Assembly: GCA_036172245.1 (NCBI GenBank)
Contig: JAYWIR010000003.1
Span: 7,192,001-7,256,000 of the forward strand
Length of the DNA: 64,000 bases
Direction: 5' to 3'
DNA from: Raillietiella orientalis
Lineage: Eukaryota
Position 1 is the stretch's first letter; each line of letters begins with the position of its first letter. Positions 7,580-63,189 of this stretch are shown in pieces. The position numbers and the translations under genes were made by a program. The notes under the pieces are model-generated. The model saw only the letters and a program-made list of their open reading frames with translations. It was not told the origin of the DNA and did not search any database.

Positions 7580-8530
7580 GCCCGGGTGTGCCGGGGCATT
7601 TACTGAAGGTCAATAAACATGCAAGTGTCGTAGTGGGGCACGTAGCCCTACCACGGCACATCCTACAATTGACCTGCCGGGTCGCCAGTGCGCAGACCGG
7701 CTGGGCTCACCTCAGCAGCGGAGGGGGATGGGGGAAAAAAAGAAAAAGAAAATAAAAATAAATAAATGAAGCTTATTTATTTTTATTTTCTGGAGAATTG
7801 GCGAGGGATCACAGTCCTCTGGAAGGAATCCTCTGCGCCCTTTCCAGGATGCCGGCTAGGTCGTTCCGTACATTGTCCAGGTGGGGCCGTCTGGACTCTA
7901 CCGGCAGAAAGCGAACTGCGAACAGGAAGGCGTCCCTATCGTTCCTCCCCTCGTTGACTTCGTTCCACGCCGCCACGATCCTCGAAGGCAGCAAAGTGTT
8001 GCTAGGGCTGCGGCTGGCTGCAGGGCATCCCGCACAAAGAGGAGGAGCCGTACAACGTCCCTGGGGTTGCCGCCGGGGGTTCCAAGGGTAGCAACAAAGC
8101 GTTCCCGGTGGGGATAGATGGCAACACAGTCCACTAGTAGGTGAGGGAAGGACTCTCGCTCCCTGCACCTGGCACAGTTCGGGTCCAGACCCGCCCAACC
8201 CCGAGTCCAGTGATTCAGAGGACGTTGCACGAGAGGCTCCCCAGTTCAGCAGCATCAACGCCGGCTTCTGCTACTTCAATGGGTGGGCGCAGGTGTCCAT
8301 AAGCACCGAGGGGAAGCCATCCAGGGGTTAGCTACTTGATGACCCATCGGAACATCCGGTAGCAAGTCCCAGCTCAAGTCCAGGGAGGCTGCTCGAAGGG
8401 CAGAACGGTCACACCTGGCGCGCTGCGTCCTCGAGCAGCCCCAGTAATGGCGCGCGCTCCAGACCGGCAACCCGTCCGTCCTGAGGTCCCCCGGAACCCG
8501 GAGGCTCGCGACAGCAGTCGTCCCGATCCC
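7580..8530 (-). mobile_element. Tx1/L1-like LINE copy 2, 5'-truncated (zf-RVT plus 3' UTR)
   Basis: HWTRGWAGLDPNCARCRERESFPHLLVDC is a C-x2-C-x7-H-x4-C finger; ORF2 stop TGA at 7809-7811 followed by TCCC; structured 3' UTR down to ~7580. Confidence 0.85.
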
Positions 8531-13404: not shown

Positions 13405-13960
13405 TACCCGGTCACGCTGGGACGCTTACTTAAAAAATAAACAGGGGAACGATGACCTCTGAAGACGGCAAAAAAAATAAAGTTCATTGAGATGACCACC
13501 GGCACGCAGGCCGGTTTGTATGAAAATTCGGATAGAAGGGAGAGGTCAATAAATAAATAAAAAAAGATGAGAGGAAGGGACAGGGAGTCCTTGGTTTCAA
13601 TCGTTCCTTGCTTCCTAAAAAGCGGCTCTGTATGGATGTGATCTCCTTGGTGACTCCACTCGGAGGTGGGGGCACCGCTGCAGCCTCCCTCATGCTGGTG
13701 GCCTCCCTTCGCTGCGAGAGACTCCGACACATGGCGGACCGTTACTATGGTGCGGATGCAACGGATCGTTGCAATCGCAGCGCCCGTCTTCAGCTCTCCT
13801 CGAGTGGAGAAGCGCCGCAGCGAGTCCCAAGATGCGTCCTCCGAGGTGGTAGGCCGCTGCATGTCCACGAGGGCGCTGCTGCAGTCCAACAGGAGACGCG
13901 GGAACAACTCCATCTTCCCGTACCCTTGAACAGTTTGTGGAGGCGACTCCCCCGCAGGAA
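13405..13960 (-). mobile_element. Diverged Tx1-like 3' end (copy 7; related subfamily)
   Basis: NCSR / GKMELFPRLLLDC degenerate finger (~13880-13935); T-rich UTR; hairpin ACCGGC-CTGCGT-GCCGGT (13498-13515); terminal ACCGGGT at ~13406. Confidence 0.65.
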
Positions 13961-14479: not shown

Positions 14480-16990
14480 TTTCCCCAAAAGCTTTAATGG
14501 GGAAGCCCAGCGATCTCTGCCCAAGCATGGGGAGCAAACGCACTTCCTCAGGGCTAACTCCTGCAGAGCCCCTTTCAAACCTATGGACGGCAGGACGCTC
14601 TTCCCTTTCCCGCATCACATCCCAGACATCCGACTGAAGACATGTCGCTTTCTGTTCTTGCGGTGTCTCCCCCCCCCCTCCCTTGAGATGTGTCCAGCTA
14701 CCGCAGTTCCGCCTGATTTTAGACGGTGGGGCTAGAGGGACGTGACTTGCATCCACAGATGGAGGGAGGGTGGTTGGAAAACAAATCCATCGGGAATGCT
14801 GCTGCATTGTGTATTATCCTTGCGCAGGGGCCATGCTAATCTCTGTATCGTTCCAATTTTAGTATATGTACCGCCGAAGCAGGTAGTGCGACCCTAAGGG
14901 TGGTTCTTCGTGCACTGCTGGTCGCAGGGAACGAGGAAAGGGGGAGGGAGGTCAAGAAAAAGGTTGGGGTGACATCACACTCCTTCTGCCGAAGTGCTTT
15001 CGACTCGGCTAACTTTCCACAGGTTGTCTGGCGCTTTGCCCGCGCACGTCCAAAATTAAAAATTTCCTGCGCACCCTGATGGCTGTCTCTGCTTTCTGAC
15101 CTCGCCAGCGGCTTGCTCGCCTTGATCATTCATTCGACCCGTGCGACCGATTCTCGAGCACCACTCCGTACACCACCACCCGAAGCCTGCGGTGGATGGC
15201 CGCTCTTCCGTCACCGGCTCCCTGAGCCGACACGCGCGCATGCGCTCTTCCTCCGAAGGTGTGGACACCGCCCCATGAAATTCTGTTTTGCACGATCATT
15301 CTCTTCGTTGGTAGCCCTGCTTTAAGTCGTTCTTGGCAACATGGCTGCCCTCGCACACCGTATGTTTCACTCCCTTGGCGAGGGAGGAAAAATCCAACGA
15401 CTCTGGGATAGGAAGACGGTGAGTTAGAAGGATAAGAGGACGAAGAGGCAATGCTCTGCGAGTGACCACGGCACGATCGAGGCGTGCGGTGCTGTGACCG
15501 CGTCGTGTGCACGCGTCGCGTGTAGGCAATAGCCTCAAGTGGCACGAACGTGTTCCCAGAAAGTACCAGGAAGGTTTGTTCCTGCGAAGGTGCGAGGAAC
15601 CATGGAAGTGGTCCCTACAAGGCACTCCGTCCCCAGCCCAACAATTCAATGAATGCTTTTCTCGCCCTTCGATGGCAGCTCAACACAAGAAGAGGGGCGT
15701 GCAGTCTTTTTGGCACGTCTCTTTGACGTTTGCCTGAACTCTTGCACGAGAGGAGGCCGCGGTGGATGGCCTCTTTGCGAATCCATGCCGGCGGGCAGGA
15801 GGAGCCATCGTGGTGCTCCTGTTCGCGTCTTCAGCTCGCTCTGTGCCATGCCCCAAAGCAAGCCGTCGCTAACGGCGTATTTCCCCCAGAGCAGCTCGTC
15901 TTTATCGTTTCTTGACGTGGGGAGCACTTCAGCAGGACCGGGACTAGGCTGCAAATCGCCTTCCACCCCGGTCACTCTTCCCTGCGGAAACCTGGCGGTC
16001 TTGCGATCGGCAGCGGCTGCTCGCGGTGGCGTTCTCAACGTTGACGAGGGCGCACTACGCTGGCGGATCGCTGGCGCTCCTGGGGATATCAGCGTCCCCC
16101 ATCCCAGTTGTCGAACGTGAGACCCATCCGCCTAATCCTCTGGTCGAGTCCATTCGACTTTCGCTCAGAGGCGACCGCTTTGTGCGATCCACGTTCAGCG
16201 TGCCACCGGAAGTGCTTCGTGCTTTCCACTTGAGAGGGAACCCCGAAGAGTAGCTCTTCCTTATTCTCTCCGGAGGGAACCCACCCGCAAGGGAACCTCT
16301 CCTCGTTTCCTCTGAAGAGAGCCGCTAAGGGCTGCTTCCTGATTTCTCTAAAGGGCGCTCCCCGAAGGGAGCAGCGCGCTTCTTTGCACACTAGAGAGTA
16401 CACCAGCTCCATGGAACGCGATGGAGGGCCCCTTCTACGAGGAAGGGTCAGGGATCCTTTTTCGCAACCGAAAGAAAGCTCCGAAGGGCTCCTTGATTTC
16501 TAGGAGGACCCCGGAGGGTCCACTTCCAATTCCGGAGGCCAGTCAACAGGGGCATCCGGAGGTTTCTAGTTCTTCCACCAGTGCCACCCCTCCCGAATAC
16601 AGGCCGACCTGCGTCAATTTACGGCGGGATTCGAAACCCACGACTTACCCCCCGTTTCTCGGCGTCGATCCTTCCCCGGAAGGGATTCGAACCTACGACG
16701 CTAGGTAGTGTCACGCGCGGAGTCCGTGGTCGCCGCACACGTCCTCCAACGCGGTCCAGACATCTTTGGGTTTCAATGAGACGTTGCTTCCTTTGCGCGA
16801 GCCAGGCACTTAGGTTCGCGAAGCTGCAGCGGACCGATCGAGCCGACTTGTCTCTCCTCGGGAGAGCAGCGACCTTGAATCATAAAGAGACATTGCCAGT
16901 CTCCTCGTTGGGAACCGGTTCATTATGCAAACTTGTTCCGTATGCTGAAAGTTTCTCAAAGGCAACGGTGTGGTGCAGATGAATGGCTTG
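14480..16990 (-). mobile_element. Ty3/Gypsy pol remnant (RNase H plus integrase), interrupted by a SINE at 16230-16755
   Basis: RNase H motifs KPFICTT, YDSRSLLSRGE (YASR-L---E), KHFR...SHKAV...RIRRMGL. Integrase motifs YAVSDGLLW...RWLLLP, H...H zinc-finger remnant, PESLDF, RMNDQG (SDQG), QTTCGKLAE, LPLSSFPATSSARRTT. All are in Gypsy order. No LTRs recognised. Confidence 0.7.
16230..16755 (-). mobile_element. tRNA-derived SINE-like family, copy D (3'-truncated)
   Basis: B-box GGTTCGAATCC (16683-16693, minus) and a second T-arm-like GGGTTTCGAATCCC (16626-16639); body alignable by eye with the copies at 18.4k, 25.2k, 27.3k, 33.1k and 38.9k. Confidence 0.8.
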
Positions 16991-18444: not shown

Positions 18445-18990
18445 GTTCCGCGCCCTCCCAAGGGACCGTCCGCGCAGGGGCTCGCGAAACTCTTCGATAG
18501 TGTCCACTCCAGCCGAGGGTGCGCGTGTCGATTCTTCGGTTCCTAGGGGGTGACCCCCTAGGAACCACCCTATAAATTCGGGAAGGAGCTTGTTCCTCTC
18601 CCTCTTCGAAGAAATTGGGATCCATTTCTTCGAAGGGTGCTTCCCGAAGAGAGCAGCGCGCTTCCTGACACTCTGGAGAGGCAATCCTTTCCGAGAAGGC
18701 TATCAGTGTACTCCGTGGGACGGGTAACTCCGAAGGGCTCTTTGAATTCCCGGAAGGACCCTCCATAGAACGAACTTCCTATTCCGAACAACCAACGGGG
18801 GCATCCGGGGTTTCCGACTTTCCCGTCGGTGCCTCCTCACCCGAATACAGGCCGACCAGCGTCATCTTGCGGACGGACTCGAAACTCATGACGTATCCCC
18901 CGTTCTCGGAGTCGACCTTCCCCCGGGCAGGATTCGAACCCGCGAGGTTTGGTGGCGCCACGCGGCGGAGGCAGCAGCTGCACGAACTGG
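18445..18990 (-). mobile_element. tRNA-derived SINE-like family, copy C
   Basis: B-box at 18930-18940 (minus: GCGGGTTCGAATCCTGCCC); body and tail homologous to copies A, B and E. Confidence 0.85.
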
Positions 18991-25244: not shown

Positions 25245-25900
25245 ATCTTTGGCCACGTTAACGGCCGCGGGCTCCGCCGCGTGGCACCGCCAAGCGTTGC
25301 GGGTTCGAATCCTGCCCGGGAAGAGAAGGACCGACGCCAGAGAAACAGAGGGTGCGTCGTGAGTTTCGAGTCTGCTCGCGAGATGACACTGGTCGGCTTG
25401 TGTTCGGGTGGGGAGGCACTGACGGAAGAGCCAGAAACCTCCAGATGCTCCAGTTGGCTGCCCGGGATGGGAAGTTCGCACTACGGGGTCCCTCCAGGAA
25501 TCAAAGAGGTCCTTCGGTGTTGCGAAAAGGGGAGCTGGTTGGTGCCCCCCTGGGGGGTCGCCTCTCCAGAGTGACAAGAAGCGCGCCGCTCCTTGCGGGG
25601 TTCTCAGAGGAGGAGAAAAGAAGGGAAGGATCCTTTTGGGGGGTCCCTCCATAGAGAATAGGGAAGAGGATCCCTCTGGAGACAACCAGGGCGAGGATTC
25701 CGTTCGAGATCCTCCTACTAGGCGTAGGAGGAACGCACTCCTTCCTCCGGGGCGCTCCTTGGATTCATAGGTTGGTCCCTACGGGGTTACCCCTATGAAT
25801 TGAAGAGTGGACACTCACCCTCGGCTGGCGTAGAGCTTTAAGAAGCTTCGTGGCCTCCGTAGGCAACGAACGGACGGTTCTTCAACACTTGACGAACTCC
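25245..25900 (+). mobile_element. tRNA-derived SINE-like family, copy A
   Basis: B-box GGTTCGAATCC at 25302-25312; second GTTTCGAGTC ~50 nt downstream; hairpin module array; shared tail GAGCTTCGTG...GACGGTTCTTCA. Confidence 0.85.
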
Positions 25901-27304
25901 CCCCTCCCTCTCCCCTTCCCCCTAGAAAAAATAAAAATTCCGAAAAAACGGGAAAAGCTGTCAGGGAAGCAGACATCTTTGTAGGGCAGCACGAAGCCCT
26001 GCTCCTTGCGATGCGCACCGCTCGTCCGCACGTAAACGTGCGCGCATGGACGCCTTCCGGAGCACTCGGGTCACCTGCTCGCCACCGCGTGATGGGAGCC
26101 CCGCGTGGCCTGCGCACGCGGAACGAGCACCCTCGCGTGCATGCGCCTATCCTGCGTGTCGCGTGCTTCCGCCCGCGGGCGCCGGCGCTCACACGCCGTC
26201 CGCACGCGCGCGCGAGCATGGGTTCCCGCCCTACCGCGCTAAATCCGAAGAGGTGACCTCCCTATGCGCGCGCCCTTCCCCCTGCTAGTGAGGAGGGAGG
26301 GAGATCCTGCCGGGAAGGGTGCGCGGGCTACGAGAAGGGAGCGTCGAGGACAGGCGTGCTCCTCGCGCGCGCTGACCCCCTGGCAGGAGGTGGACAGCGT
26401 TCCGGGCTACCGGAACGTTATCCCGAGTCCCCGGGGACGATGCCGGCACGTCGTCCGCGCTAGATTTTTCGATCCGGACGTGCCTTCTTCTTGGCTGCTT
26501 CCCGTTCCCTAGGCTGAGGGAACACAGGAGGACTCCCCTCGCCATTCCTCGTCGGGAGAGAGAGAAAGGAGGAGGAGGGGAGACTCGTGCCTCCATTTCA
26601 CTTCTTCTCCTGGCGCTCCGGGAGGAGTCCAGAGGAGCAGCGGAAGGGGAAAAGAAAATCCCAGGCGGCTCCTGCAGAGAAGAAAATCCGACGACGCTCT
26701 GGAAGCAGCCGCGGAGGCCGCCAGGCAGCTCTCCCGAAGAAAGGCGTGGCCACGTGGACCCGGGTCGGGACCCTTACGCGGGCCGAATCCCTTGTGGGCG
26801 GCGCTTTCTCGGCGACGCAAGGTGCGGAGCGCTCCCCGGGTTCCGGAAAAGAGGGGCTGGGATGGGAGCTGCTCCTGCCTGAGAGCAGGTCGCCGCTTGG
26901 GGACCGCCGCCGGCATGTTGGTTAGCGTCAGGTACCAGCAGGCCGAGGAGCGTTGGGGGACCTCCGGCGTGGGTGGGAGGGGAAGGAGAACCATCCTCCC
27001 GGCGACTGGACTGCGGTGAGGCTGGTCGAGCGGGGAGCAGAGTTTCTGGAATGTTCCCCCGTACAAATCGGGACGCTTGTCACGGAAACCTGCTCCGGGG
27101 CAGGTCCACGGGGGGGCGGGGAAGGAAGGGATGCCACTAACGTGAGGGGGAAGTCGACCACTGATCCGTGCCCCACGGCGGTGTTCCCTGTCCCTCCTCG
27201 AAAAATCTCCCTGGTCCACTGCGGCGCGCCGAAAGGTCCCGTGGCCCAACGTCGCTCAGGGCTCTGTTCCCAAGCGGAGAGATGCTGGATTCCTCCGCGG
27301 TCCT

Positions 27305-28060
27305 CGTTGGTGGCCGTGCGGTTGCTGCGACCTCTGCCGTGTGGCACCACCAAGCGTTACGGGTTTGAATCCCTCCCGGGGGAAGGACCGACGCCGAGAA
27401 ACCGGGAGCGCGCCTTGGATTTCGAGTTCTCCGCGCAAGACGACTCTGGTCAGTCTGTGTTCGAACGGGTTGGCACGGGTAGAAGAGCTGGAGACCCCCC
27501 CAGATGCCCCCCCGTTGACTGGTCGGAATGGGAAGTTCGCCCTAAAGGGGGTCTCTCCAGGAATCGAAGAGCCCTTTGAGGTTCCCCTCCGGTTGTGCAG
27601 ATGGAACTTCCCTGCCCTCCCCCTCAGGGGGAACCCTCCATCGCGTACCAGGCGGCGTCTCCAGAGCGTAAGAAGCGCGCTGCTCCCTTCGGGGAAATTT
27701 GGGAGCGCCCCTCCCGGGTTCTCTTCAGAGGAGGAGAAAAGAAGGGGCGGATCCTTTTAAGGGTCCCTCCGAAGAAGAAACAAAGAGTGTTTCCCTCTCT
27801 GGGGGATCCCTCCGGAGAAAATAGGGAAGAGGATTCGAACCAGTGCGCGGATTTTGTTCGGGGTCCCCCTACCAGGCGTAGGAGGAACACACTCCTTCTT
27901 CCGGAGCCCTTCCTGGATCCGTAGGGTGGTCCCTACGATGCCATCCCCTGTAACTTGGCACGCACTCTCGAGTGGGTGGACAGCACCAGAGAGCTTCGTG
28001 AGCCTCCAGGCGAACGACGCCCTTGAGTGCGTGACGAACCAGAGAGAAAAAAAAAAAAAC
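27305..28060 (+). mobile_element. tRNA-derived SINE-like family, copy B (near full length, A-rich end)
   Basis: A-box-like TGGCCGTGCGG 27311-27321; B-box GGTTTGAATCC 27362-27372; collinear with copy A; ends in an A run at ~28046-28059. Confidence 0.85.
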
Positions 28061-32420: not shown

Positions 32421-35400
32421 CACCCGGGTGCACCGGGCCGTTTATTTTGCAACAAAATTATTACAAAAAAAAATTGTGGTTGGACAGGTGGTCCAACCAC
32501 GCCCAATTTAAAGGAGACCTGCCGGGTCGCCGGCACGCAGAGCAGCGCGGTCCACCACGGCAGTAGAGGGGAAAGGGCAAACAAAAATAAAAAATAAATA
32601 CACTATGGGAGGGGGGGGCTTCGGGAAGGGATCACTGTCCTCTGGCGGCAGTCCGGTCTATCCTCTCTAGGATGTCGGTAAGATCTTGCTGGGTATTCCT
32701 GTCCAAGTGGGACCATCGCGTTGCCATCCTGATGAAATGGATGGCGGAATGGATCGCATCCCTGTTGCTGGGTCCTCCCGTTGCTTTACTCCAGGCTGTG
32801 ACGATCCCGCGTAGGCAGCACAAGGCTGCAAGGGAGGCCGCTGGCCGAAGGGCGTTGCGAACGAAGAGGGGTTTAAGAGCGTCCCTGGAGTTGCCACCGG
32901 GGGTTCAGGGCCGCGACAGAGGTTTCCAGAGGGATTCGAGGGCAACACAATTAGTGTTGCCCTCGAATCCCTCTGGAAATCCTTCACTAACAAAAATCCA
33001 ACAAAAATCCTTCACCAACAGGGGAGGATTAACGGTCCCCGCACCTGACACAGTTCGGGTCCATACATCCCCGCGTCCAGTAGTGATAAATTATCCAGGA
33101 AGGGCTCGGAGTCCGTTCCTCTCACGCTTGGGGAGGGATCCCACCCGGACGGGGGGATCGCACCTCCCACCCTGGTTGTCTCCGAAGGGGAACCCCGAAG
33201 GGAATCTCCCCTTCCTCATTCTCTCCGGAGGGAAACCCCCCTAACGGGGGGTGGTCCTCTCCATTTTTTCTTCTCCGAAGGGAACCCGGAAAGGATCCGC
33301 TTGTAGGAATTTCTTCTCCGGAGGGAACCCGCAAGGGAACCGCTCCTTTTCACTACTCTGAAGAGAACCCCGAAGGGACGCTTCCGAAACTCAGAAGGGG
33401 TGCTGCAGCTTCCCGCAGGGGGATCGCTCCCGCTTGCTTCCTTGTGCACACTCTGTGAAGAGGCGACGACTCGGAGGGTCCCCCCGCAACAGGAGGGTCC
33501 ACTCCTTTGAACAACTGGAGAGGTGCCCGTGAGGGCTCCTGCTCCATCTTGAAACCGGAGGTGGTCCCCCGGTGACGGAGGTCCGCTCTCCGTTGCACGA
33601 CCGGAGGGGGAACGGAGAGCTCCTTGGATTCCTAAGAGGACCCGAAGGTCGACCCCCATTGTTCCGGCCTTCATCGGGGGGCCTCCGGCTTTATCCACCG
33701 CCGGTGCCACGCCCGAATGTCTCGGCCATCCAGCGCCATCTTGCAGGAGAAACTCGGAACCCAAACGAAGCAGTGGCGTCAGTTATCTGCCGAAGTATTC
33801 GAACCCGCGACGCACGGTGCCACGCGCGGAAGCCTCAACCACAAAGCCTCCGACGCGTCCAATGGTGACGATGGGCGTTGCATAGGAGACCCCAATGCAA
33901 AATCAACAGCACCGGACTGCTGCCACTTCAAGGGGAGGGTGCGGTTGTCCATGAGCAACGGGGACCACTTCAGGTGTTCCACCGGAACATCCAGCAGCTC
34001 GACCCAGCGCAAGAGTCCGTGGGGAGGTGTACTTGGGGTCGCAGCGTTGATGAGCTGTCCCGTCTTCCACTGGCCCAGTCTTTTTTCTCTTCCTGAGTTG
34101 TTCACCTTAACTTCCCATTTTGCCGTGATGCTGCTGCTCAGGTGTCCCCTGAGGGAGGGCAGCACTAGGGTGAGGGAGGTTCTTCCTGTCGACGCGCTTT
34201 TTCGGGGATTCTCCAGGATCTCTCAAAGGGAGAAGCGGTTGTTGCGCACTTACAGGAAGCGGTGCACCTGTTCCGTGCTTTGCTCCTGGCTTCTCGCCCA
34301 CGTGCAAACGGTTTCCTGTAGCCAGGTGCTACCGTTCGCGGGGAGGCAGGAGATCCATCCCGAGTTCTTCCTCGTCATATTGGCCACCCTCTGAAGCTGC
34401 AATCCGCAGTGGGCGATAAGGTGGCGACGGAGTGCACCGAAGGACGCGAATCCCTCGTTGCCGGTGACTTTCTGGATGAGGAGGCGTGCATATACGCATT
34501 AGGTAGTGCTCCATAACTTCGCCGCAAGGGCAAGAATCCTGAACTGGAGCTGAAGCTCCAGATGCTCCAGCGTCAAGAGGCCGAGAATGCAGTCTCGATG
34601 TGGAGCGCACAAGCGGACTCGGGACCTCCCTTTGACCCAAAGGGCGATCCTGAGGAGGTTCTTCGTCCTCTTCTTACCCCCCTCGTTTGGGGAGCATACA
34701 AAAAGCAGGGTCGGAGGAACGGGCCGATCTCCGTCTCTGCTTTCTGGAGGCAGCTGGACCACGCCTCCGCAGGGAGATAGTCCCCCAACGGCACACAGAG
34801 GTACTTACAGTACCATACCGTGGGTGTGCCCAAGCGGATCCAGTCCCACTGCTCTGTCCACGCCGCACCGACTGGCATCACCTCTTTCCTCGCCTGTTTT
34901 TTGTTTCGCCTTCGTCCTGTTCACCCTGAGTTCTGTCCCGCGGCCGAGCAGATCGAAGGAATTCTCGGCTGTGGAAGCTGGGGTGGACATGGGGAGCAGC
35001 AGCAGAAGATCGTCAATCGGCGTACGCTGACACCGCAGGCGTACACAGGCAATCGCGCGGCAGGTGTGCCAGAGTCTTCCTGTACTCTCTCAGCACCAAT
35101 TCAAAATGGACGCTGAAGGCTGTCGCCCTGCCGTATGCCGCGTCTCACCGGCACGCCGTGCACGGTGTGAGCGCATCGCGCCAGCTGGAACGCGGGTCGT
35201 CCAGCCATGCGGCCGGGAAACCCAAGAGTTCCAGCAGCTTCAGAAGCTGCTGCTGGTCGACCTAGCCGGATGCCTTGTGCAAATCGACTGCGGCCACAAG
35301 CGCTCCTTCCCCCGACGGACGCTTCGGAATTCCGACTGCCCATCTTGTTCCTTTCCTGTAGGAGCGCGAACCATGTGCTTGCGTAAAACAGGTTGGCATC

Positions 35401-35540
35401 CCTACTTCGCCCGGGAACAGCGTAGGACTGCCCCGGGCTGATTTAGCTTTCCGCCGCCCGTCCGAGACGCTCGGCCCATAATTTCTCTAGCAACTTGGCG
35501 TCCGCTTTTAACACGGTAGCGACCGATGGTCGAAGGGACC
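32421..35540 (-). mobile_element. Tx1/L1-like LINE copy 3: best-preserved RT through zf-RVT and 3' UTR; interrupted by a SINE
   Basis: LKADAKLLEKLWAERL; SPGQSYAVPGR; AVDLHKASG*VDQQQLLKLLELLGFP; VRRGIRQGDSL; SAYA[4-bp insertion]DDLLLL (~35005-35025); GTELRVNRTK; KYLCVPLG; HYWTRGCMDPNCVRCG; stop at 32632-32634. Confidence 0.92.
33087..33853 (-). mobile_element. tRNA-derived SINE-like family, copy F, with 15-bp target-site duplication
   Basis: Flanked by CGCGTCCAGTAGTGA (33072-33086) and CGCGTCCAATGGTGA (33854-33868), 13/15 identical; B-box remnant at 33797-33806; five hairpin modules. Confidence 0.85.
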
Positions 35541-35797
35541 CTCGGTGTGCTCCGCGCGCGTGGAGCCACCAATGGTCACGCGCATCGCGGGCGGGCGGGA
35601 AGGGGAGCACGCACGCCTGGTTTCGTTTTCTCCTCTGGTCGGAGGCTCGCTTCCGAGGAGCAGGGGTGCCGCCTTCAGCTTTCCCTCTGGTCCACTCTCC
35701 CCTCCTTCCCCCTTCCTTTCCCGATCCTCCCTGTTCGTCTACTTGCGCGTTCCGTCCCCGAGGGCCCCGTTCTAATTGCGCTTTGCATTCTTTCCAG

Positions 35798-36008
35798 GTC
35801 TCCTGGATAAGAGAGAAAGACTTCCAGGTGCTCACTTCCGGGATGCTGACGTACACTAGTGACCGTAGATTTCATTTGCAGCATTTTCAGAATTCCGATG
35901 AGTGGGTTTTGACAATCGACAGCGTCAAGCTTGAAGATGCAGGAGATTATCAGTGTCAAGTGGGAACGCAGCCCAAGCTATCAGTCACGTTCTACCTCGA
36001 GGTGCTCG
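35798..36008 (+). CDS. Dpr/ZIG-8-family Ig protein, exon encoding the C-terminal half of Ig1
   Basis: CTAAT branch point and TTTCCAG| acceptor (phase 0); VSWIREKDFQVLTSGMLTYTSDRRF...DEWVLTIDSVKLEDAGDYQCQVGTQPK is the Dpr Ig1 signature (VSW-R--D--LT-G--TYTSD-RF, D-G-Y-CQV-T-PK); donor G|GTACGG (phase 1). Confidence 0.95.
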
Positions 36009-36349
36009 GTACGGTAAATGGTTCCTGTCACGATCCACATCCATCATTGTGTGATTTTTCTTTTTTTTCCTCTTTCTCTTACTTAACCCCGTTCTCCTCA
36101 GACTGAAGGAATCAGCATAATTAACGGCAAAGTCAGTCGTTTCCCCTTTGTTTCCCAGGTAGCGCGCTTATTTGTTTCTCTCCTCTCAGGATTGGGAGCA
36201 GCGGTGTCTACGTGAACGCGTCGGGGGTGTCGGCTCATTAAAATTAGTTAATTAAGGCCGCTCGCTCGTTGTTTTTTTTTTTTTTGAGCCCAACGCAAAC
36301 GCTTCTACCCTGCACCGGATTTCGGGGGGAGGGGCGGGGGCTCAGTCTT

Positions 36350-38914: not shown

Positions 38915-40055
38915 CCATGCTTGGCACCAAGCACCAAGCGGTTGGAATACCCGTAAAGGGTCGACGCAGAGAAATGGGAGTGCGTCGTGCGTTTCGAGTC
39001 CCTTCCCCCGCAGGGTGACGTTGGCTGGCGTATTCGAGCTCCGCACTGACTGAAACCCGGTCACACTGTTTTTAAAATAAACACCTATGTCCCTGGCAGG
39101 AGGTTCGATCCTGCCCCGCGTCACCTATAACTACGAGGAGGAACCTGCCGGGAATTGGCACGCAGGCCAGCGGGGTTGGCTTCGGCAGCACAGGGGAAGG
39201 AGAGACAAAGAAAAAGAAAAAAAAAAAACATACAGTCAAAAAAAAAATGGGGGGAGGGGGAGATCGGGAAGGGATCACGGTGTGCTGGAGGGTGTCCTCT
39301 GCATCCTTGTATGGATGTCGGCAATTTCCTGTTTCAAGACTCCTAGATGGGGCCATCTTGAGGCTGTGCTCATGAAGAGGACAGCAAAACAGATGGCGTC
39401 GCTGTCGTCCTGGCCTCCTCTGGCGTTGCTGCTCCATGCGGCCACGGTCCCGCCCCGTGGGCAGCACAGTGCTTTTGGGGATGCAACCGGCGTGAGGGCG
39501 TCGCGCAGGAAGAAGCGCTTTAAAATGAGGCACCGGTAGAAGCAGGATGCCCGCTGACTGGCCAGGATTGGAAGTTTCCAATCCTGGCCAGGAGGCCCTC
39601 AGGAGCCCTTTCAAGAAGCAAGGAACCCTTCCCATCCGGTTGGGAAAATGAGGGGCTGCCTCTCCAGAGTGTGCTCCTCTCCTCTGCTCCCTCCAGGTAG
39701 CGCCCTTCAGAGAAATTGGGAAGCATCCCTTCGGGGTTCTCTTCCGAGGAGGAAACGAGAAGCCTCTCCCCGTTTCGGCTCCCTTGCGGGTGAGTACCCT
39801 CCGGAGAAGAAATAATGGAGTGGTCTCCTCCGAAAGTCCCTCCGGAGAGAATAAGGAAGCGGGTTCCTTCGTAGCCCCCCTACCAAGCACGAGAGGAAGC
39901 GACTTTTTCCTCCGGATACTTCCTGTATCCATAGGGCGGTCCCTACGGAGTTATCTCCTGAACTACACGCGCCCTCGGGTGGCGAGGGCGGGGTCAAAGA
40001 GCTTCGTGAGCTCTCCTAAAGAGGCTGACGGTTCTTCAGCACTTGGCGAATTTTG
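38915..40055 (+). mobile_element. tRNA-derived SINE-like family, copy E, split by LINE copy 4
   Basis: Head (GGCACCAAGC...GTCGTGCGTTTCGAGTCC) at 38915-39054; body resumes at ~39528 (GAGGCACC...GGATGCCC) and continues through the module array and tail to ~40055. Confidence 0.8.
39055..39527 (-). mobile_element. Tx1/L1-like LINE copy 4, short 3' fragment
   Basis: ORF2 C-terminal homology (LCCPRG-TVAAW, RWPHL); stop TGA at 39275-39277 followed by TCCC; structured 3' UTR ending CCGGGT at 39055. Confidence 0.85.
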
Positions 40056-42384: not shown

Positions 42385-42445
42385 ACACACACACACACGC
42401 ACGCACACACACACGCACGCACACACACACATACACACACACACA
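42385..42445. repeat. (CA)n/(CACG)n microsatellite immediately upstream of a splice acceptor
   Basis: Read directly; ends about 17 nt before the AG at 42462-42463. Confidence 0.95.
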
Positions 42446-42772: not shown

Positions 42773-43447
42773 GTAAGGGCCGCGGGTGAAAGAGCGCCTC
42801 GGGCCTTCGCCGCGTAGTCCGTACGGCGCCAGGACGTGTTCGGCTCCGCGCCGAATTTTTCCGGGAGCGCACGTCTGCAGAATTTATTGCCTTACTAAAT
42901 CAGGACTTTAAAATCCCGGCAGAGGCGGATCGCACGCTATGCTGCCCGGAAACTGCTCAGATCTTCGCAGATTACCGATATCCACAATAAAGCAAAGCAG
43001 CTAACAAAGGTAGATCGTGGTGCTGGTACTTTATGGCCGAAGGGTTTCGTCGTTTCCTCCCTGCGCGAGCCCGGATTCCCTGGAACGGATTGGGGGTGGA
43101 AGAGCTCCGAATCCATCAGACGCGCTACCTTTCCGACGCCCAAAGTGCCCTCGCAGGGGAGGAACACGGGCTTCCTTGCGAAAAGCTTGAATTTGAACGA
43201 TGAATCTGAATTTCGCCGGGAGTTCAATTCTCAGGGATTTCCCCTTTTTCCTTCTTTCCTTTGTTTCGACTCGGGTTCCGGCGTCCCGAAGAGGATTTTT
43301 GAATTCGGGCCGGGTACTCGTACAGGGCGGATGGAGCGCCAAAGCCGAGCTAGCGGATTTCGGTGGCGGAAACCGCCACCACCTCGTACTCGCTTCCCGC
43401 TCGGAAGAGGCTCCCGTGGCACGCGGAGCCACCCGCCGACTTGCTTG

Positions 43448-45450
43448 CACCCGGGTGCGCCGGAACGTTTATTCTTTCGAATAAGCACGTACAAGATCTG
43501 TGGCTGGACCCGCAGTCCAGCCACGCGCTAAATGCTGGAAGCCTGCCGGGTCACCGGTTCGCAGACCGGTGCGGTCCACCTCGGCAGCAGAGGGAAGGGG
43601 GCAAAAACAAAAAGAAACACAAAAATACAAAAATAAATAAAGAAAACGGGGGAGGACACGGTAAGGGATCACGGTCTGCTGGTTAAGCACCGTCACATCC
43701 TTTGGAGGATGCCGGCAAGCTCTTTCTGGATATTGGATTTCAGATGGGGCCATCACGTCTCCATCCTCAAGAACCGGACGGCATATTCGCTGGCATCCCT
43801 ATCGCTGGGTCCTCCCGTCGCGTTGCCCCATGCAGCGACGATCCCGCGTGGGCAGCACAGGGCTGCTAGCGAGGCCGCTGGCGGCAGAGCGTCTCGAACG
43901 AAGAGGGGTCGTATAGCGTCTCTGGGGATGCCTTCGGGGGTTCCCAGGGCCTCGGCAAAGAGTTCCCACAGGGGCTGGAGGGCAGCACAATCCACTAACA
44001 GGTGGGAGAGGGATTCCCTCTCCCCGTACCGAACACAATTAGGGTCGAAAATCCCCCGCGTCCAGTGGTGACGGAGGGCGTTGCACGGGAGACACCAACC
44101 CGCCGACTTGCGGACACCGTCTCGGAGCAATCGGTAGAGCAATGAACGAGAGCGTGCGCCTCGGTGCGTGCCCTACACAGAGGTAGCACGCCAAGGAGCA
44201 CACTTGGCAGCCCCCGTTTTCGAATGCTTTCGTTCCCACCGGATTCTCCTCCTGCGTTATTCCGAAGGGGGTTGTTGCTATGGTGCGCCGATCAGTGATT
44301 CCTTCTCTCCCGCGCTGACCTGCTACGGTCGCTCGTGCAAATCAGCGGTTCCAAGCACGCTTCGTCTCCGGAGTGCCAGACGGGAACGGGATTTCGCTCC
44401 TCGCGCGACTACTGCTCGTCAGACGTGACACACGAAGCGAGAGATTTTCGGCCTCCGCTTCCAGTACGGTAGCTTCTAGCGGAAGCGAGACCGTGGCGGA
44501 AAGGGTCCAAGGTGTCTTCGTATCTGCGTGAACAGAGACACGCATGAAAGGAGCGGGCGTCGCCAACCTACGCGGACTCTGCGTGCCTCGGTGCTAAAGG
44601 ACGATATCTTCTCGACCTCGAGCCCATGCCCACGGAAGAGTAAAGTGCTCCGAGTACAGAGGCCATCGCCAAAGCCAGAGCCCAGCCAGTCGCTCGCAGT
44701 CCCGATGAACTCGCAAAAGTTGTGGAGACTCTACGGGAACACGGATTCGTCCGGAGAGCCCATCCACCGCTCCTTCCAAGCTGCTGCTCCGCGTCCTGCA
44801 TCCCAACGTCCGTGTCCTGTCTCCTGCCCAGAAAGAGATGGAGCACCACCATGCTTTGCTGACCGGAGGAGATTTGTTGAACCCCACCCACAAGAAACGA
44901 GAGGAAGGCACATCTGCACATTTGACCCACGCCGGACGGCTGCTCGAAACGCCGAGCTTCTTGCAGGGCATTGAGCGTTCTCTTCGGCATCTCGTTCAAA
45001 GGTTCCACCCTCAGGCGATGTTCGACCCGTTCGAGTCTTCCGCCAAAGATGCAAACTTCGGCAGAGAAGGGGCTTCTGGAGGCGCGTTCTTTCCGATCCC
45101 CAAGCGACGTAATCCAACAGTGAGATCGTATTGTCCTTTCGCACGCGTTCAGGACCGTTCAGAAAAGAGCGGAAGAAGGAGAGGGCTTCAGCAGAGCGGA
45201 CGGTTGCACGGGCAGCCCCGTCAGTCGCAGTCCACTGGCGCAGTGAGATGCAACGGCTGACAAAGAGATGACAGAAAGCTTTCAGAGGCCTGTTCTTTTT
45301 GTGGCGATCGATCGATCGGTCCAGTCGTTTCCGTCCTCCTCTGCCTGGAAACACCTCTGGCAGGAAGCGGTTCGGAAAGTGTCCGCGCCGTGAAACTTGT
45401 CTGGAGTTCATTGGGATGGAATTTTGTCATCCGGCGGAAAGCGGCACCGA
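43448..45450 (-). mobile_element. Tx1/L1-like LINE copy 5 (well-preserved zf-RVT and 3' UTR, plus decayed RT upstream)
   Basis: LPCNALRHHWTRGIFDPNCVRYGERESLSHLLVDC; stop at 43669-43671. Upstream motifs ISLLDYVAW, GVGQMCRCAFLSF (GVRQGCPLS--LF-like), FASSSGLR. The RT part may belong to a separate, older copy. Confidence 0.8.
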
Positions 45451-56799: not shown

Positions 56800-59240
56800 T
56801 GAAGCTGCACGCTGATGCTGCGTGCACAGGATGCTTCGAGGATCGCGTCGCCGAGAGAGGCGGACTTCAGGAGCTCAAATTTATCACGACTCCCTCAGGA
56901 GGCATGGGAATGGAGCATTCCTGCCCTTGCTCACGGTGTCTCGTCTCGAGGGCCTCAGGCTCTCGGTCGGCTGTGGAGGGTTGGCATCCCGTCCGCTCCG
57001 TAGCCGCCACAAGACGAATTTGGCACAGAGGGGGATGGCCTCTCTGCAAGAAGGAGACCTGCAGGTGTCGTGCTGTTGCCAGGGAGTTCAGCAATTAGCA
57101 CGGAGAAGGGGTCGACACCTCGGGCACGGACGACGCGGTGTCCGTCCGTAATTGTTGCGTCCTACGTGCCCTTTCGTGAGGGTCTCTCTCGGTGGGGTAA
57201 TGCTGGACCTAGAGAATTCCTCCGCGCCACTATAATGCAGTGTTAGGCATCCTCTAGATGATGACCAGCAGGGCAAGAGTTGCCCTGCAGCATCGCGGGA
57301 GCGACGCCCCTCCCTGCGAATGGGTGGCAGCCCTGCTGACCACCTGAGTCTCTGCAGAAAGGCGGGAGTTACCCGGATCTGCTGGACGTTCTTCAATAGG
57401 AAGCTGGCAGTCTCCCGGTGTGTCTGGGCAGCTCCGTGCCCTTATCCCTTCATCCCAAGACGCAGCAGGCGACACTCACGAAGGACGGCGCACTTCCTGC
57501 ACTGGAGCTCCCCGTGTGCCAGCGCTGCTGAGCTGCCATGGTGTCCTTCTTTCTGTCTGGAGGGGACTAGGCAAACGGTCTTTGGCACCCATGTGATTCT
57601 CCCATTTAACTTTAGCAGGTTTTTATCGTATCGGATGGTGTGGTGCTTTCTCCTGAGCCATCGCTTTGCTGCGTCAGCCCTTCCCTGACGCCTCCGAGTG
57701 AGTTCTTTCGAATTCCAATAGGAGGTCGGAAGAAATGACTAGGAACTGACTAAGAACTTTGCCTACGGCCTCCAACAGGAATCCGAAGGCATAGTTCATG
57801 GTAAGCCATTTCGAAAGAGTGGCTCACGCGTCGCCATGTAGGCAGCGGTCTCCTCGTTCCTGATGGAAGGCTCAGGGCTGTGTTCCTCGAGCACGTGGAT
57901 GCTGCGAAACAGTCCGCCTGCCTCCAAGGCATTATGACCGGCGGGGACGCGCTGTGATGGGCCACACCGGCACGTGGGTTCCGTGCTTTTCTGGGACGGT
58001 GCGCAGAGCAGACTTGTCCGACTCTGAGACAAGAAGCAGCCGCGACCACCATGTTGGCTGAGGTTCAGGGCGCCTTGCGATTTTTCTTGTATTTTTCCCT
58101 CTGCGGGGACGCCTGAAGATGATTCTCGTGCTCAGCGCCTGTTCCCTCGGGCTCGAAGAGAGGAATCCCCCTAGTAACCGGAAGGTTTGGCAACCTCTCC
58201 CCCTTGAGCTTCCCTTCCAACAATAGAGATGCCCTTGTGGCTGCCTCCGTGGTCCATGGGGAAGATTGCAGCTTGATTCCACCGTCAGCCCAACCCTGCA
58301 CAAGAATTCTGTTAACCCAGTGACGTCATGGCGTCATGAAATGAATGCGAGTGGTCGAAAACCATCGGTTCCCACTGCGTGCGCGCACACCGCATATTCG
58401 TGTGAGAGCCCCTTTCCAGCAGTGGGAACGTCCATGTGCTCTGGCACGAGCGCCGGATGCAAGAAAGGACGACCTGCTGGACCCACTAGCTGGTTGGCAA
58501 GGCCGGGGATCTCAGCGCACCAGGGTCAGCCCTTGAGCTCTAAGGGGCTAGCTGTAGACAAGATGATGTGGACAAGGTCCAATAAACCTGAAAAGCGTGG
58601 GGACCGTCCTACGGAGGAGCGACCTACCGTCAGACGTCCAAGACTGCCCCCTGGCGTCCTCTCACGGAGGGTGCCTGCGCGGAATGGTGCCGCAGCACTG
58701 GGAGGGGGAACCCCAACAGCAAAGACCGCCCCACTCACGGCACCACGAAAGACGACCCACACCTGTGCAACTGCGGAACCGTTGTTGCGGACTGGCAAGT
58801 GGTCAGGAAGGCCTTGGGGAAACAGTCGACAGTCCAAGGTCGAAATCCCGCGAGGACTCTTCGAGGAACATGAAACCCCACTTTGAGGACAATTCTCCAT
58901 CCGGAGCATCCTCGTCGGGAGGACCAAAGTCCTGGGGCAGCACGCTTGTACAGCAGAAGGGCATCCTCACCGGTTTGTGAAAATAAAGGAGATCGTGGGC
59001 TGTAGGGGAGGAGTTCCCGCTGCACCCTTCAGGGAATTCAAGGAGGAAAACTACCTTCCCCTCTACTTCCTGGGGGCAGAACCCCGGGTGCAGAATGCAT
59101 TTCCTCCCAAGTCCCGTCCAGTCCCATCTGCTAAACACGCGCCTCTGGGGAGCAACGGCGCCGTTGCCCAGCAGCAGCAAGAACCGAGCGGTGGAAACCC
59201 CTTTCATGCTGACCCGTGGCAACAACCAGCTGTTGACCTG
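56800..59240 (-). mobile_element. Decayed L1/Tx1-like ORF2 (RT to zinc finger)
   Basis: FSGLLDLVHIIL...LELKG (KAFD-V-H--L---L---G-like), CAHAVG (YADD-like), GGIKLQ, VTRGIPL, CPRC...TARHLQV finger (~57060-57125). Confidence 0.6.
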
Positions 59241-59245
59241 GACTC

Positions 59246-59960
59246 TCACCCGGTACGCCGAGGCGTTTATTTATAGATTGAATAAACATTTGCGATTTCT
59301 GTGGTTGGACCGGTGATTCAAACCCGTCCTTTTTTGATCGAAGCTGCCGGGTGATCGGTTCGCAGACCGGTGTCAGGTCCACCACGAGCAGAAGGGAGGG
59401 GCAAACAAAAGGAAAAAAGAAACAAAAATAAAAACAAATAACTAAATTTGGAAGGGGAAAAGAGGGAGTGCAGGAAGGGATCACTGTCTGCTGGGGATGG
59501 TCCTCTGCATCCTTTGGAGGATGCCGGCAAGGTCTTGCTGGATATTCCTGTTCAGGTGGGGCCATCTCGTTGCCATCCCCATGAAGGGGACTGCGAAGTG
59601 GATGTGGTACCCCTATTGCTGGGTCGTCATGCGTTGCTCCAGGCAGAGAGGATCCTGAGCAGGCAGCAGAGAGCTGCCTACTTGGGATCTCATACTGCCG
59701 GCCGAAGGGTGCCGCGAATGAGGAGGGGTTTGAGAGCGTCCCTGGAATTGCCTCAGGGGATCCCTAGGATCGCGCCGAAGCGCCCCCAGAGGAGGGCCAC
59801 TAGCAGTGCAGGAGGGATTCCCTCACCCCACACCTGCCACAGTCTGGGTCTCCCCCCTCCCCCGGCGTCTAGAGATGCCGTTGCACGAGAGTTCCCAGTG
59901 CGACAGCAGCAGTGCCGACTCCGAGCACTTCAAGGGGAGGGTTCACTGTTGACCTGGATG
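59246..59960 (-). mobile_element. Tx1/L1-like LINE copy 6, 5'-truncated
   Basis: Collinear with copies 3 and 5; stop TGA at 59481-59483 followed by TCCC; structured 3' UTR ending CCGGGTGA at 59246. Confidence 0.88.
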
Positions 59961-60849: not shown

Positions 60850-61250
60850 TGGGGGGGGGGGGGGTTCGTCACTGGGTCGCGGCTCTTCCGAAGGGGCAGG
60901 ACGCCTTCGATGCGCAGCGGCTGAGCGCTTTTCTCCCCGGGTCGCCTGTGAGCCCCGGGAAGTACTCGCGGCCGAATGTCCTTAAGGGGACGCCTCCTGC
61001 ATCCTCCTGCATCCGCGCGCGCTCCCTGGGTAGGGAGCTTGGGAGCGGGGAAGGGGAGGGTGAGCTCCATGGGTTTGGCACCCCAGGGGAAAGGGATGAG
61101 GAAACCGCCTTCCCAGGAGGACTCACGGAGGCAGCTCCTCCGCTACCTGTCAACGCCCTGGGTCTCTGGGGCATGCGCACTTTACAGCAGTCTCAAATGA
61201 CTCGTGTCGGCGATGGTGGACGCGGTCAGAAACCGGACGACCCCAGCGAC
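60850..61250 (-). mobile_element. Possible LINE ORF1 (RRM end / knuckle) remnant
   Basis: RARMQEDAGGVPLRTFGREYFPG...SRCASKASCP is only weakly ORF1-like. Confidence 0.3.
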
Positions 61251-63189
61251 ACCGACCATGGCAGCGGCGGTTGAAGTTTCGCAGAGGAGGCTGGAAAGGG
61301 AGCTGACTGGAGGCTCCTTCCCTTCGGGACGAGGCTCTCCTGGAACCGGAGCTGGCACCTCCCGCTCCTGAGGGCGCCAACCTGAGGATCGAAGCCTCCG
61401 GGAGACGAGGGGCGGGCGGACGGGCTTTCATCTCAGCCTCCAGGCAAGCAGAGACGTCCCCGATCGTCTCAGGAGATGCCGACCAGCCCGCCCTCCAGAG
61501 GAGCGCCTTCCACACCATCCCAATTGTAGGCGGCGCAAGGACGACCGCCTTTGGAGCGCACAGCGGCTCCAGCGCCCCGACGGCAGTCGCCCCGGGAGGC
61601 CGGCGGAGTTCCCTGCTCGACCCTGGAAAAGACCACTCCTGAGTGGGATTCTCGGAAGGGTCCTGCTTGGGCTGGAATAGTTCCTCCCTCCTTCCTCCTC
61701 CTTTCCCTTTCCTTCCCTCTCCCTCCTTTCCTTCTCCTCTTGCTCCCTCCCTTTTCTTTCTCTTGCTTTCCTCCCCCCTCTTTCTTTTCTCGAGATAAGA
61801 GGAAGAAGGGAAGAAAGAGGAGGAGAGGAAGGGAAGGCTCTCTGTCTTTCCTCCCTCTCCTTCACGGGAGCACCAGGCCACTCCCAGTGGGCTAATGATG
61901 GCTCGCACGGTGCAGCCGCCGCTTCCTCTCGAGCTGGATCGAGGACGTCCCGTCGCCACGTGGGTTCTCTGAACGCCCATGGTATCGGCAACTGCAGGCA
62001 TGCACTTCCTATTTGCTGGTGGCTGCCCACTGCCCTGAGGCGCGTCGCCATGGTGCTTCGAAGGAAGCAACCCGGGATCGCGATCGCTGCAGCCGTTGTG
62101 GGTCCTTAAGGCTCTGCTCCGTATGCGGGCGGAAGTGTTGACGCAAGACACTCCCATTCTCAAACGGAGGGTGCCACCGCAGTCCAGCAGCTGGAGCGAG
62201 GGTGATTCCGTCCCCTTTCTCCTCTCTTCCTCTTTCTCTTTCTCAAGGCGCAGCCCCTGTCCGCCGCGGGTGGGCGGCGGGGAAGGATGTTTGGAGTGGG
62301 GAGGAGGAGGAGCAGAACGCTCATGGAAGGACCACTGGGGACCGCGGGTGGGGAGAGTCCACTGCCGTCTCGCCTCGGCAGTTCGCGGAGTGGGACGCCC
62401 TTCCTTTCTTCGCTGAGTCCGCCGCTGCCAGCCGAGGAGGTTTCGACCCCACGGAAGGTGACTCAGAAGAACAGGGGCATTTCGGAGCTCCGACATCCCT
62501 TCACTACCCCTTTCCTGCATAGCGACCCACGGACGTGACCCCCACTCCTTCGTCAGGGTACTCCGGCGGCGCTTCGACACGAAGTCGCAGCGGGATAGGA
62601 GGAGGAACAGAGGGGGGGAGGGCAAGAAGAAAAGGAAGACAGAAAGGGAGGAAGGGTGAGGAAGGGAAGAGAAGCGGAAAGGGAGGAAAGGAAGAGGTGG
62701 AGGAAGGAGAAAGGAGAATGGAATTGCAGCTGCAGCTAAAGGGAAAGATGACTCCATGGCACGTTGCTTGGCGAGCAGCGGACTTCCACTCTGGAAGAAG
62801 GGACCGCACCGATGCTTCTGTGTAGGCGAGGGATAGGGGACGCTCCACTTGGTGTCGGCGCCTTCATTGGGTTGCGTTCGCGTGAGACGTCGCTTGAGAG
62901 AGGGCGCGGCCATCGCTTCCTTTCACCTGCTCCTGATGCAGCCTTCCCGCTCGTGTGTCGCGCTGAGCTGTCCTCTATGACTGCTTCCTCGCAGGCCTCC
63001 CTCTTCGTCTTGTCAGGTCACGGGAACGTATTAATTTTTCTGTTTTTCTCTCGCTCCGAGGAGATGGCAAAAAAAAAAAAAAAAAAGTACGACGAGCGTG
63101 TTCTCCCAACTTCCGCACGAGCACACATTAACTTTCTTCCCTGGGGATCGGCTCTGGCACGCATCCGTTCTTTTCTCTCTCCTTAGTTT

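Follow-up and report, generated by a model that had tools for sequence, protein, structure and literature searches.

Why should the last ~150 nucleotides (nt) of a decayed retrotransposon stay recognisable from copy to copy, and what might such a tail be for? This question is raised by a stretch of 64,000 nt from Raillietiella orientalis (contig JAYWIR010000003.1, positions 7,192,001 to 7,256,000; hereafter the window), where a 3'-terminal repeat of ~150 nt is found in seven copies, all seven on the minus strand, at the ends of a truncated long interspersed nuclear element (LINE). A preliminary description had proposed that this repeat is a structured RNA with an invariant CUGCG loop. The analysis presented here indicates that the tail is a real RNA structure that has probably been under selection, and a reading of it as the structure by which the reverse transcriptase (RT) of a "stringent-type" LINE recognises its RNA, placed in the last ~150 nt of a ~225-nt 3' untranslated region (UTR), appears to us about evenly balanced between right and wrong. 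In kind the structure is a familiar one, the family that carries it being undescribed, and no new principle is claimed.

The seven copies and their ends

The repeat was sought on both the sequence level and the covariance-model level. A blastn search with the region of the copy near 43448 returned five further copies at 70-79% identity, while an nhmmer profile of all seven tails matched with E values from 9e-18 to 9e-48, the best remaining match standing at E 0.97; pairwise DNA identity among the tail copies is 66-79%. A covariance model, R1, was built from the five complete copies, with the 13405 and 3850 copies left out of training, and when the window was scanned with filters off both left-out copies were recovered, at 13407-13526 (E 1.6e-4) and 3786-3899 (E 6e-3), with no loci besides the seven copies. 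The set of seven minus-strand copies and their places, as first described, is therefore borne out by nhmmer and by the covariance model. The same description had counted the 3850 and 59246 copies as partial, which holds for the former, whereas the latter matches the whole model and the other divergent copy is the one at 13405. The seven copies are old, truncated and decayed members of one LINE family, and they are laid out as follows (ORF, open reading frame; TSD, target-site duplication).

43600-43445, minus strand: tail of the 43448 copy, the reference copy for the anatomy given below
43669-44097, minus strand: end of the 5'-truncated LINE ORF of the 43448 copy, with a CCHC-type motif; its 5' junction, 44097/44098, is taken from the TSD
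43431-43444, minus strand: 3' copy of the TSD GCAAGTCGGCGGGT, an exact 14-mer with its 5' partner at 44098-44111
59243-59945 (703 nt), minus strand: 59246 copy, bounded by a TSD, with a full-length match to model R1
32421-32568, minus strand: tail of the 32421 copy, with an ORF remnant up to ~33100 (nhmmer, tblastn, model R1)
7581-7723, minus strand: tail of the 7580 copy, with an ORF remnant up to ~8245 (nhmmer, tblastn, model R1)
39055-39193, minus strand: tail of the 39055 copy, with H1 cut to 4 bp, H2 as GGCAGGA/UCCUGCC and AAUAAA lost
13406-13526, minus strand: divergent tail of the 13405 copy, with H1 as ACCGGC/GCCGGU, H3 and the CCGGGU end, and without H0 and H2
3786-3899, minus strand: divergent tail of the 3850 copy, with a variant H0, two mismatches in H1 and H3 as UUCAUU/AAUGAA, and without the CCGGGU end

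The limits of the inserted units were read from TSDs, for which a script compared the 3' flank with the upstream side in the six copies that have a defined end. The exact 14-bp duplication GCAAGTCGGCGGGT brackets the 43448 copy (44098-44111 and 43431-43444) and the 13-bp duplication TCCAGGTCAACAG the 59246 copy (59946-59958 and 59230-59242); the 13405 copy has a weaker 10-bp candidate, and the three remaining copies of this set gave none. Because TSDs bracket them, the 43448 and 59246 copies are taken to be true single retrotransposition products, truncated at the 5' end like all the copies, and each of these units is made up of an ORF remnant and a 3' UTR (653 nt and 703 nt, respectively). 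In the 43448 copy the stop codon TGA (43671-43669) stands 224 nt ahead of the 3' end of the element, giving a 3' UTR of ~225 nt.

Both ends defined in this way (..CCGGGUGCAA and ..CCGGGUGAGAG) lie exactly 23 nt downstream of AAUAAA; in the 59246 copy, AATAAA is followed after 23 nt by the end ..CCGGGTGAGAG. A poly(A) tail is lacking, the TSD-defined ends carrying zero to two A and the remaining copies being followed by zero to four, so that nothing of the mammalian L1 type of poly(A) tail is seen. The terminus had earlier been placed at CCGGGT, close to the end given by the TSD, which is three to four nt past CCGGGTG and falls at 43445 in the 43448 copy. The insertion sites differ from one another, as the two TSDs (GCAAGTCGGCGGGT and TCCAGGTCAACAG) and all six 3' flanks are unrelated, and for this reason the insertion into one specific target that is typical of Tx1 elements is not seen here.

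The three 5' truncation points that can be located, at 44097, 59945 and ~13958, fall within ~60-70 nt of one another in ORF coordinates, and no copy is homologous beyond ~0.7 kb. This clustering could be due to chance, to a preferred truncation site or to a discrete short derivative of the element.

Directly upstream of the tails runs a decayed reading frame, with similarity on the protein level among five copies (tblastn). This ORF remnant ends in ..ILERMQRT..Q-stop and carries, in the 7580 copy, the CCHC motif C-x2-C-x7-H-x4-C, which is echoed by sub-threshold matches to the Pfam zf-RVT/CCHC domain in two independent copies (E 0.041 and 0.061, 15.0 and 14.4 bits against a cut-off of 27.5). 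No RT or endonuclease domain was found in 150 of the 151 window ORFs of at least 150 residues, nor in 54 shorter ORFs upstream of the tails. When a profile of the ORF end was compared with 1.84 billion representative sequences (~15 billion proteins), one true relative was found, an 87-residue fragment (P0001), which was also all that a second ORF-end profile returned; three further matches of the first profile were rejected as spurious, since they belong to unrelated Pfam domains. A comparison of a 139-residue ORF with longer proteins gave no relatives, a PDB sequence search with the ORF end gave no match, and an AlphaFold model of the ORF end was unusable (predicted local distance difference test score of 37). 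The earlier label "Tx1-like" thus cannot be verified in a window that holds no RT domain, and the element may be called L1-like by its CCHC end, which is as far as the data go.

Structure and conservation of the tail

Read along the minus strand of the 43448 copy, the 3' UTR consists of a stop box, a pyrimidine tract, a helix H0 that encloses hairpin H1, hairpin H2, hairpin H3 with AAUAAA, hairpin H4 and a CCGGGU end. Linkers of 18 nt and 15 nt separate H0/H1 from H2 and H2 from H3, respectively.

43655-43683, minus strand: stop box (..CAGCAGACCGTGATCCCTTACC..), spanning the stop codon, with 84% mean pairwise identity in five copies
43588-43654, minus strand: pyrimidine tract, a T-rich run and then a C/T-rich box directly 5' of H0, present in all seven copies
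43543-43587, minus strand: H0/H1 module, given by the minimum-free-energy fold and by RNAalifold, with H0 as CUGCCG(A)GGU / ACC-CGGCAG
43570-43565 and 43558-43553, minus strand: arms of H1, ACCGGU/ACCGGU, inside H0, with the loop CUGCGA at 43564-43559
43500-43524, minus strand: H2, a 10-bp stem GUGGCUGGAC/GUCCAGCCAC with the loop UGCGG, which varies between copies
43468-43484, minus strand: H3, UUAUUC-GAAA-GAAUAA, with AAUAAA (43473-43468) in its 3' arm
43445-43463, minus strand: H4 and terminus, CCGG-CGCAC-CCGG (RNAalifold) followed by GU and a non-conserved GCAA, the end being set by the TSD

In the stop box (CCAG...ACNGTGATCCCTTCC), which includes nine nt after TGA, conservation is higher than anywhere else in the element, while the pyrimidine tract has been kept in composition and not in sequence (48% identity). 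A pairing of the stop box with the tail was considered and rejected, as a proportion of 0.07 to 0.85 of shuffled sequences paired at least as well.

In the H0/H1 module, the core CTGCCG...CGGCAG of H0 is exact in three copies and is kept with a G.U pair in one more. The stem of H1 changes from ACCGGT/ACCGGT (43448 copy) to GCCGGT/ACTGGC (7580 copy), ACCGGC/GCCGGT (13405 copy) and TGGC/GCCA (39055 copy), and that of H2 from GTGGCTGGAC/GTCCAGCCAC (43500-43524) to GTGGTTGGAC/GTCCAACCAC (32476-32500) and GGCAGGA/TCCTGCC (39055 copy). All the stems quoted in the preliminary description are present in the sequence, although its numbering of the copies is inconsistent and the stem that it gave to "copy 7" belongs to the third copy. 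H2 is absent from the 13405 copy, and the 3850 copy has other hairpins in its place. A hairpin is predicted at the place of H3 in all seven copies, six of which have AAUAAA or a one-base variant of it in the 3' arm. In the 43448 copy only, the loop region of H2 at 43510-43514 also reads CUGCG (ACUGCGGG), the same pentamer as in the H1 loop. Two further pairings had been suggested, of ACCCGG with CCGGGU and of the loop CUGC with GCAG; both are complementary and would compete with H0 and H4, but the bases involved are almost invariant, and for that reason the copies give evidence neither for nor against them.

How far this architecture has been kept was assessed from mean pairwise identities in the five full copies. 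Identity is 0.63 in the ORF, 0.84 in the stop box, 0.68 in H0/H1, 0.62 in H2, 0.60 in H4 and 0.53 in H3, whereas the two linkers, at 0.28 (linker 1) and 0.39 (linker 2), stand at about the level of the unrelated 3' flank (0.36). The expectation that the tail is better conserved than the neighbouring UTR has thus held up, with helices at 0.53-0.68 against linkers at 0.28-0.39. A dead copy decays evenly over its whole length once it has been inserted, and the contrast between helices and linkers therefore points to selection in the active source lineages. The loop CUGCG of H1 is invariant in all seven copies and is the longest invariant run in the alignment, where 14 of the 97 columns filled in all seven sequences are invariant (column-permutation p 0.0027 for the CUGCG run), in agreement with the constancy first claimed for the loop.

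RNAalifold places 29 pairs in four helices. In the five copies, 88.6% of 140 cells are paired, as opposed to 21-46% when the partner is slid by one to three columns, and compensatory changes, with both sides altered, occur in six of the 29 pairs, compared with 2.4 ± 1.2 in shuffles (two of 500 reach six) and with zero to two pairs in the slid-partner controls. For all seven sequences, in an alignment that was fitted to model R1, the six compensatory pairs compare with 3.3 ± 1.2 in shuffles (12 of 500). Measured against the 43448 copy, both sides differ in 14 of 138 cells, more than the 5.5 that the rate of change per side would predict (p 0.0013); pairing is kept in 11 of these 14 (p 0.01). 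The compensatory changes fall in H1 (three of six pairs, among them the outer pair, A-U to G-C, and the closing pair, U-A to C-G) and in H2 (three of 10 pairs, with 86% of cells paired), so that the changes claimed earlier for these two stems exceed both shuffled and slid controls, and RNAalifold recovers the helices. H3 shows one compensatory change of U-A to C-G, in the 3850 copy (UUCAUU/AAUGAA), which is weak evidence because the stem is rich in A and U. The window as a whole has 58.7% G+C, an observed/expected CpG ratio of 0.93, a TpA ratio of 0.42 and many purine-rich and pyrimidine-rich runs, a composition unlike that of a typical CpG-depleted, CpG-methylated vertebrate genome, and with CpG at this level CpG decay is no special source of false compensation here.

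Kept helices, randomised linkers, compensatory changes in excess of the controls, TSDs and the lack of poly(A) together uphold the central proposal of the preliminary description, namely that selection has acted on a structured region with a function in cis, which here belongs to the 3' UTR of a retrotransposon without long terminal repeats (non-LTR retrotransposon).

What the hairpins may serve

The TSDs, which bracket ORF remnant and UTR together, place the tail in the 3' UTR of a non-LTR retrotransposon, close to its terminus or directly at it; the tail stands above the neighbouring UTR in conservation, it combines compensatory stems with a fixed loop, in a small sample, and it has a defined end without A. 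The H0/H1 module is read as a handle for the RT because its invariant loop and covarying stem, together with the A-less end and the conserved tail, match the signature of stringent LINEs. According to this reading, the RNA of the element would fold into a row of hairpins, in which the invariant CUGCG loop would be held out by H0/H1 on a stem of freely variable sequence. The loop may then act as a specific handle for the element's own RT/ORF2 protein, while the A/U hairpin H3 with its AAUAAA, together with H4, would set or present a fixed 3' end 23 nt downstream, from which target-primed reverse transcription may start, essentially without copying poly(A). What the copies themselves show is the TSDs, the exact ends without A, helices better kept than linkers and compensatory changes, whereas binding by a protein, a part of the loop in it and a use of AAUAAA are inferred.

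A more elaborate form of this proposal, in which an L1-like LINE of a GC-rich eukaryote without CpG depletion carries a so far undescribed bipartite 3' module and thereby represents a new class of RT recognition in the L1 superfamily, is one that we regard as decidedly improbable. The loop CUGCG repeats the 5' arm (CUGCCG) of the helix that encloses it, from which it follows that the loop could swap with this arm for the GCAG of the 3' arm, as a conformational switch or a pseudoknot. In such a module, the second part, likewise a hairpin, would mask AAUAAA and fix the RNA end 23 nt further on, and the loop-swap hairpin and the masking hairpin together would let the RT prime at the exact, A-less terminus.

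If recognition of the tail by the RT is true, then an L1-like family without poly(A) would be added to the few members of the L1 superfamily in which a particular 3' structure is recognised, and it would bear on the question of whether recognition in the L1 clade was stringent to begin with and became relaxed only afterwards (PMC3472496). Model R1 offers a compact signature for collecting all copies of a poorly annotated family from the source genome. No new kind of biology is opened.

Several observations weigh against recognition of the tail by the RT. The sample consists of five to seven decayed sequences from one window, with kinship between cells, so that the p-values given above are optimistic. 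Neither H0 (zero of nine pairs) nor H4 (zero of four) shows compensatory changes, and for these two helices it is conservation that speaks; the covariation term of RNAalifold is slightly unfavourable (+1.08 kcal/mol) and gives no net bonus. Single-sequence folds clearly beat shuffles in two of six copies (z -2.5 and -5.2, the others ranging from +0.2 to -1.9), and among mismatches the lead of G.U over A.C, nine to five, is too small to be significant as a mark of the sense strand (p 0.21). An exact AAUAAA is present in no more than three of the seven copies. The invariant loop lies ~115 nt from the 3' end, and in the best-studied stringent LINEs the recognised hairpin is nearer to the 3' end. 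Lastly, no full-length element, no RT domain and no partner SINE (short interspersed nuclear element, here a tail-only copy) was found in the 64-kb window.

The position of the loop speaks for another explanation, in which the hairpins serve the transcript and not the RT, be it in 3'-end formation, with H3 concealing or exposing AAUAAA and H4 placed where the RNA is cleaved, or in stability, export or translation, with H1 as the site of a host protein. The presence of AAUAAA, exact or with one base changed, in the 3' arm of H3 in six of seven copies, the distance of exactly 23 nt from AAUAAA to both TSD-defined ends and a conserved loop so distant from the end would all suit a role in the transcript. 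A role in the transcript leaves the essential absence of poly(A) from the copies unexplained, however, and the sole compensatory change in H3 (UUCAUU/AAUGAA) keeps the pairing while destroying the hexamer. We consider it unlikely, though not negligibly so, that the hairpins serve the transcript in place of the RT; the two roles can coexist.

It has also to be asked whether the hairpins are palindromes inherited without function, whose covariation arose by chance among a few related and decayed copies. The small number of sequences, the lack of covariation in H0 and H4 and the weak folding z-scores in four of six copies are all compatible with this, and trials of the covariation test show that related sequences can beat shuffles without any structure. 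Palindromes without function would have decayed together with their surroundings, though, whereas it is the linkers that have fallen to the identity of the flank (0.28-0.39 against 0.36) and the helices that stay at the level of the ORF. In addition, double changes are 2.5 times as frequent as expected, with 11 of 14 keeping the pairing, the slid controls give zero to two pairs against six, and the longest invariant run coincides exactly with a loop. Taken together, these results make an origin of the pattern without function rather improbable in our judgement.

Inverted repeats are symmetric, and it follows that covariation alone cannot separate RNA from DNA or sense from antisense. The repeats might accordingly act as DNA or on the opposite strand, as the site of a dimeric protein, as an antisense promoter or RNA, or as an exapted intronic element, to which the G.U to A.C ratio of only 9:5 and the antisense orientation of all seven copies to the only domain-bearing ORF of the window would be favourable. 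The module, however, is always found within one retrotransposed unit bounded by duplications, the ~30% divergence fits descent from diverged active elements and not host constraint in place, and a bias to one strand is the usual outcome of selection against sense LINEs in genes, which leaves action as DNA or antisense very unlikely. Least credible of all is a reading of the tail as a self-cleaving ribozyme by which the 3' end would be set, as the precise end without poly(A) and the multi-helix fold with an invariant loop might suggest, since Rfam gave no such match either in the whole window at the gathering score, where only a U6 RNA was found, or in 43350-43750 at E up to 10, where three weak matches at chance level (IRES_mnt, RsmW and MEG8) were returned and hammerhead, HDV-like, twister, pistol and hatchet ribozymes were not, while cleavage at the very 3' end of the molecule is not known from the small ribozymes, and AAUAAA at -23 is a simpler account of the end.

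The surroundings of the copies and comparison with known systems

The search for relatives of the tail elsewhere gave little. With the H1/H0 pattern, a metagenome scan returned 10 loci with matches of only 25-30 nt, two of which were inspected and proved to be bacterial coding sequence; a scan of a genome collection returned six bacterial matches at chance level, and one of a viral collection no match. A tRNA-like fold was not found by ARAGORN, and protein-based locus scans for the LINE in viral and genome collections found nothing. A small share (0.08) of the sequence words of the region is contained in one DNA sequencing run (X1), and no RNA sequencing run is listed as containing them. Over the region X1 has 30 contigs, of which 27 are less than 90% alike and three between 90 and 95%, one contig of 189 nt spanning 43449-43598 with 22 differences and four gaps. 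The summed contig depth of X1 peaks over 43544-43591, that is, over H0/H1, but depth cannot rank the parts of the tail and the peak is not counted. No description of this tail was found in the literature; Repbase and Dfam lay outside the search, so that an entry may already exist there.

Apart from the LINE copies, the window holds a full-length match to U6 small nuclear RNA, followed by a run of T, whose 3' third differs from the usual U6 sequence. The U6 match is separate from the nearby LINE copy, and a U6-LINE chimera at the 13405 copy was ruled out, as U6 lies ~800 nt past the probable 5' end of that copy. An immunoglobulin-type domain is encoded on the plus strand and is the only Pfam match among the window ORFs of at least 150 residues (150 of 151 scanned). 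All seven LINE copies are antisense to this ORF, which would be the usual bias if they lie in introns of a plus-strand gene. A protein search with the 590-residue ORF listed below found no relatives. These and the other features are listed here.

14783-14886, minus strand: U6 small nuclear RNA, 69.4 bits against a gathering score of 44
35447-36103, plus strand: ORF with an immunoglobulin-type domain (ig 25.0 bits, cut-off 21.8; V-set E 1.8e-5)
61153-62922: ORF of 590 residues
16359-16757, 18643-18984, 25262-25783 and 27299-27937, both orientations: second repeat family, 66-75% identity, no Pfam domain
4144-4605, 6100-6275 and 33780-34220, minus strand: third, weak repeat, seen on the translated level only (34-68% identity), upstream of two LINE copies
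2795-2979: tandem repeat with a 35-bp unit, 5.3 copies and 96% matches
42385-42445: (AC)30 tract

The tail may be compared with several known systems. In the zebrafish element ZfL2, the ORF2 protein has been shown to bind a 3' stem-loop, of which the loop gives the specificity and the stem is read as structure (PMC4176376). The eel element UnaL2 and the zebrafish elements ZfL2-1 and ZfL2-2, all of the stringent type, resemble the present element in having a hairpin in the 3' UTR and copies that do without poly(A), and in them the loop is the specific determinant and the stem is required as a structure (PMC4176376), roles that the loop and stem of H1 may share. Binding of this hairpin by the element's own ORF2 protein belongs to the same description (PMC4176376), and for the H0/H1 module a corresponding contact is putative. 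UnaL2 and ZfL2 differ in belonging to the L2 clade and in their one hairpin, which lies near the end and ahead of short tandem repeats, whereas here an L1-like ORF end is joined to four to five helices, the loop is ~115 nt from the end, terminal repeats are lacking and AAUAAA lies inside a hairpin.

Hairpins of this sort are also described in stringent L1-type elements of monocots (lineage 1a/LINE1-1_ZM) and of Chlamydomonas (L1-1_CR), where conservation at the 3' end greatly exceeds that of the remaining sequence and the end forms a hairpin with conserved loop bases and compensatory mutations in the stem, as in the copies described here (PMC3472496, PMC3747384). The plant hairpin falls within ~45-50 nt of the 3' end, with UCU as its loop and CGAG as its flank, and occurs in SINEs as well, and most of these elements keep a poly(A). 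The tail described here has another sequence and a larger module, without poly(A) and with no SINE partner seen in 64 kb.

The CCHC motif at the C terminus of ORF2 makes a relation to the Tx1 group (Xenopus Tx1L and its fish relatives) possible. Long A tails are often absent from Tx1 elements. They have been described as target-specific (PMC3472496, PMC3747384), as opposed to the element in the window, with its two unrelated duplications and six unrelated 3' flanks. For human L1 and Alu, too, a conserved stem-loop of the 3' UTR has been proposed (PMC5135761), and what is shared there is the idea of an L1-type RT that sees a 3' stem-loop. Human L1 is poly(A)-dependent and of the "relaxed" type.

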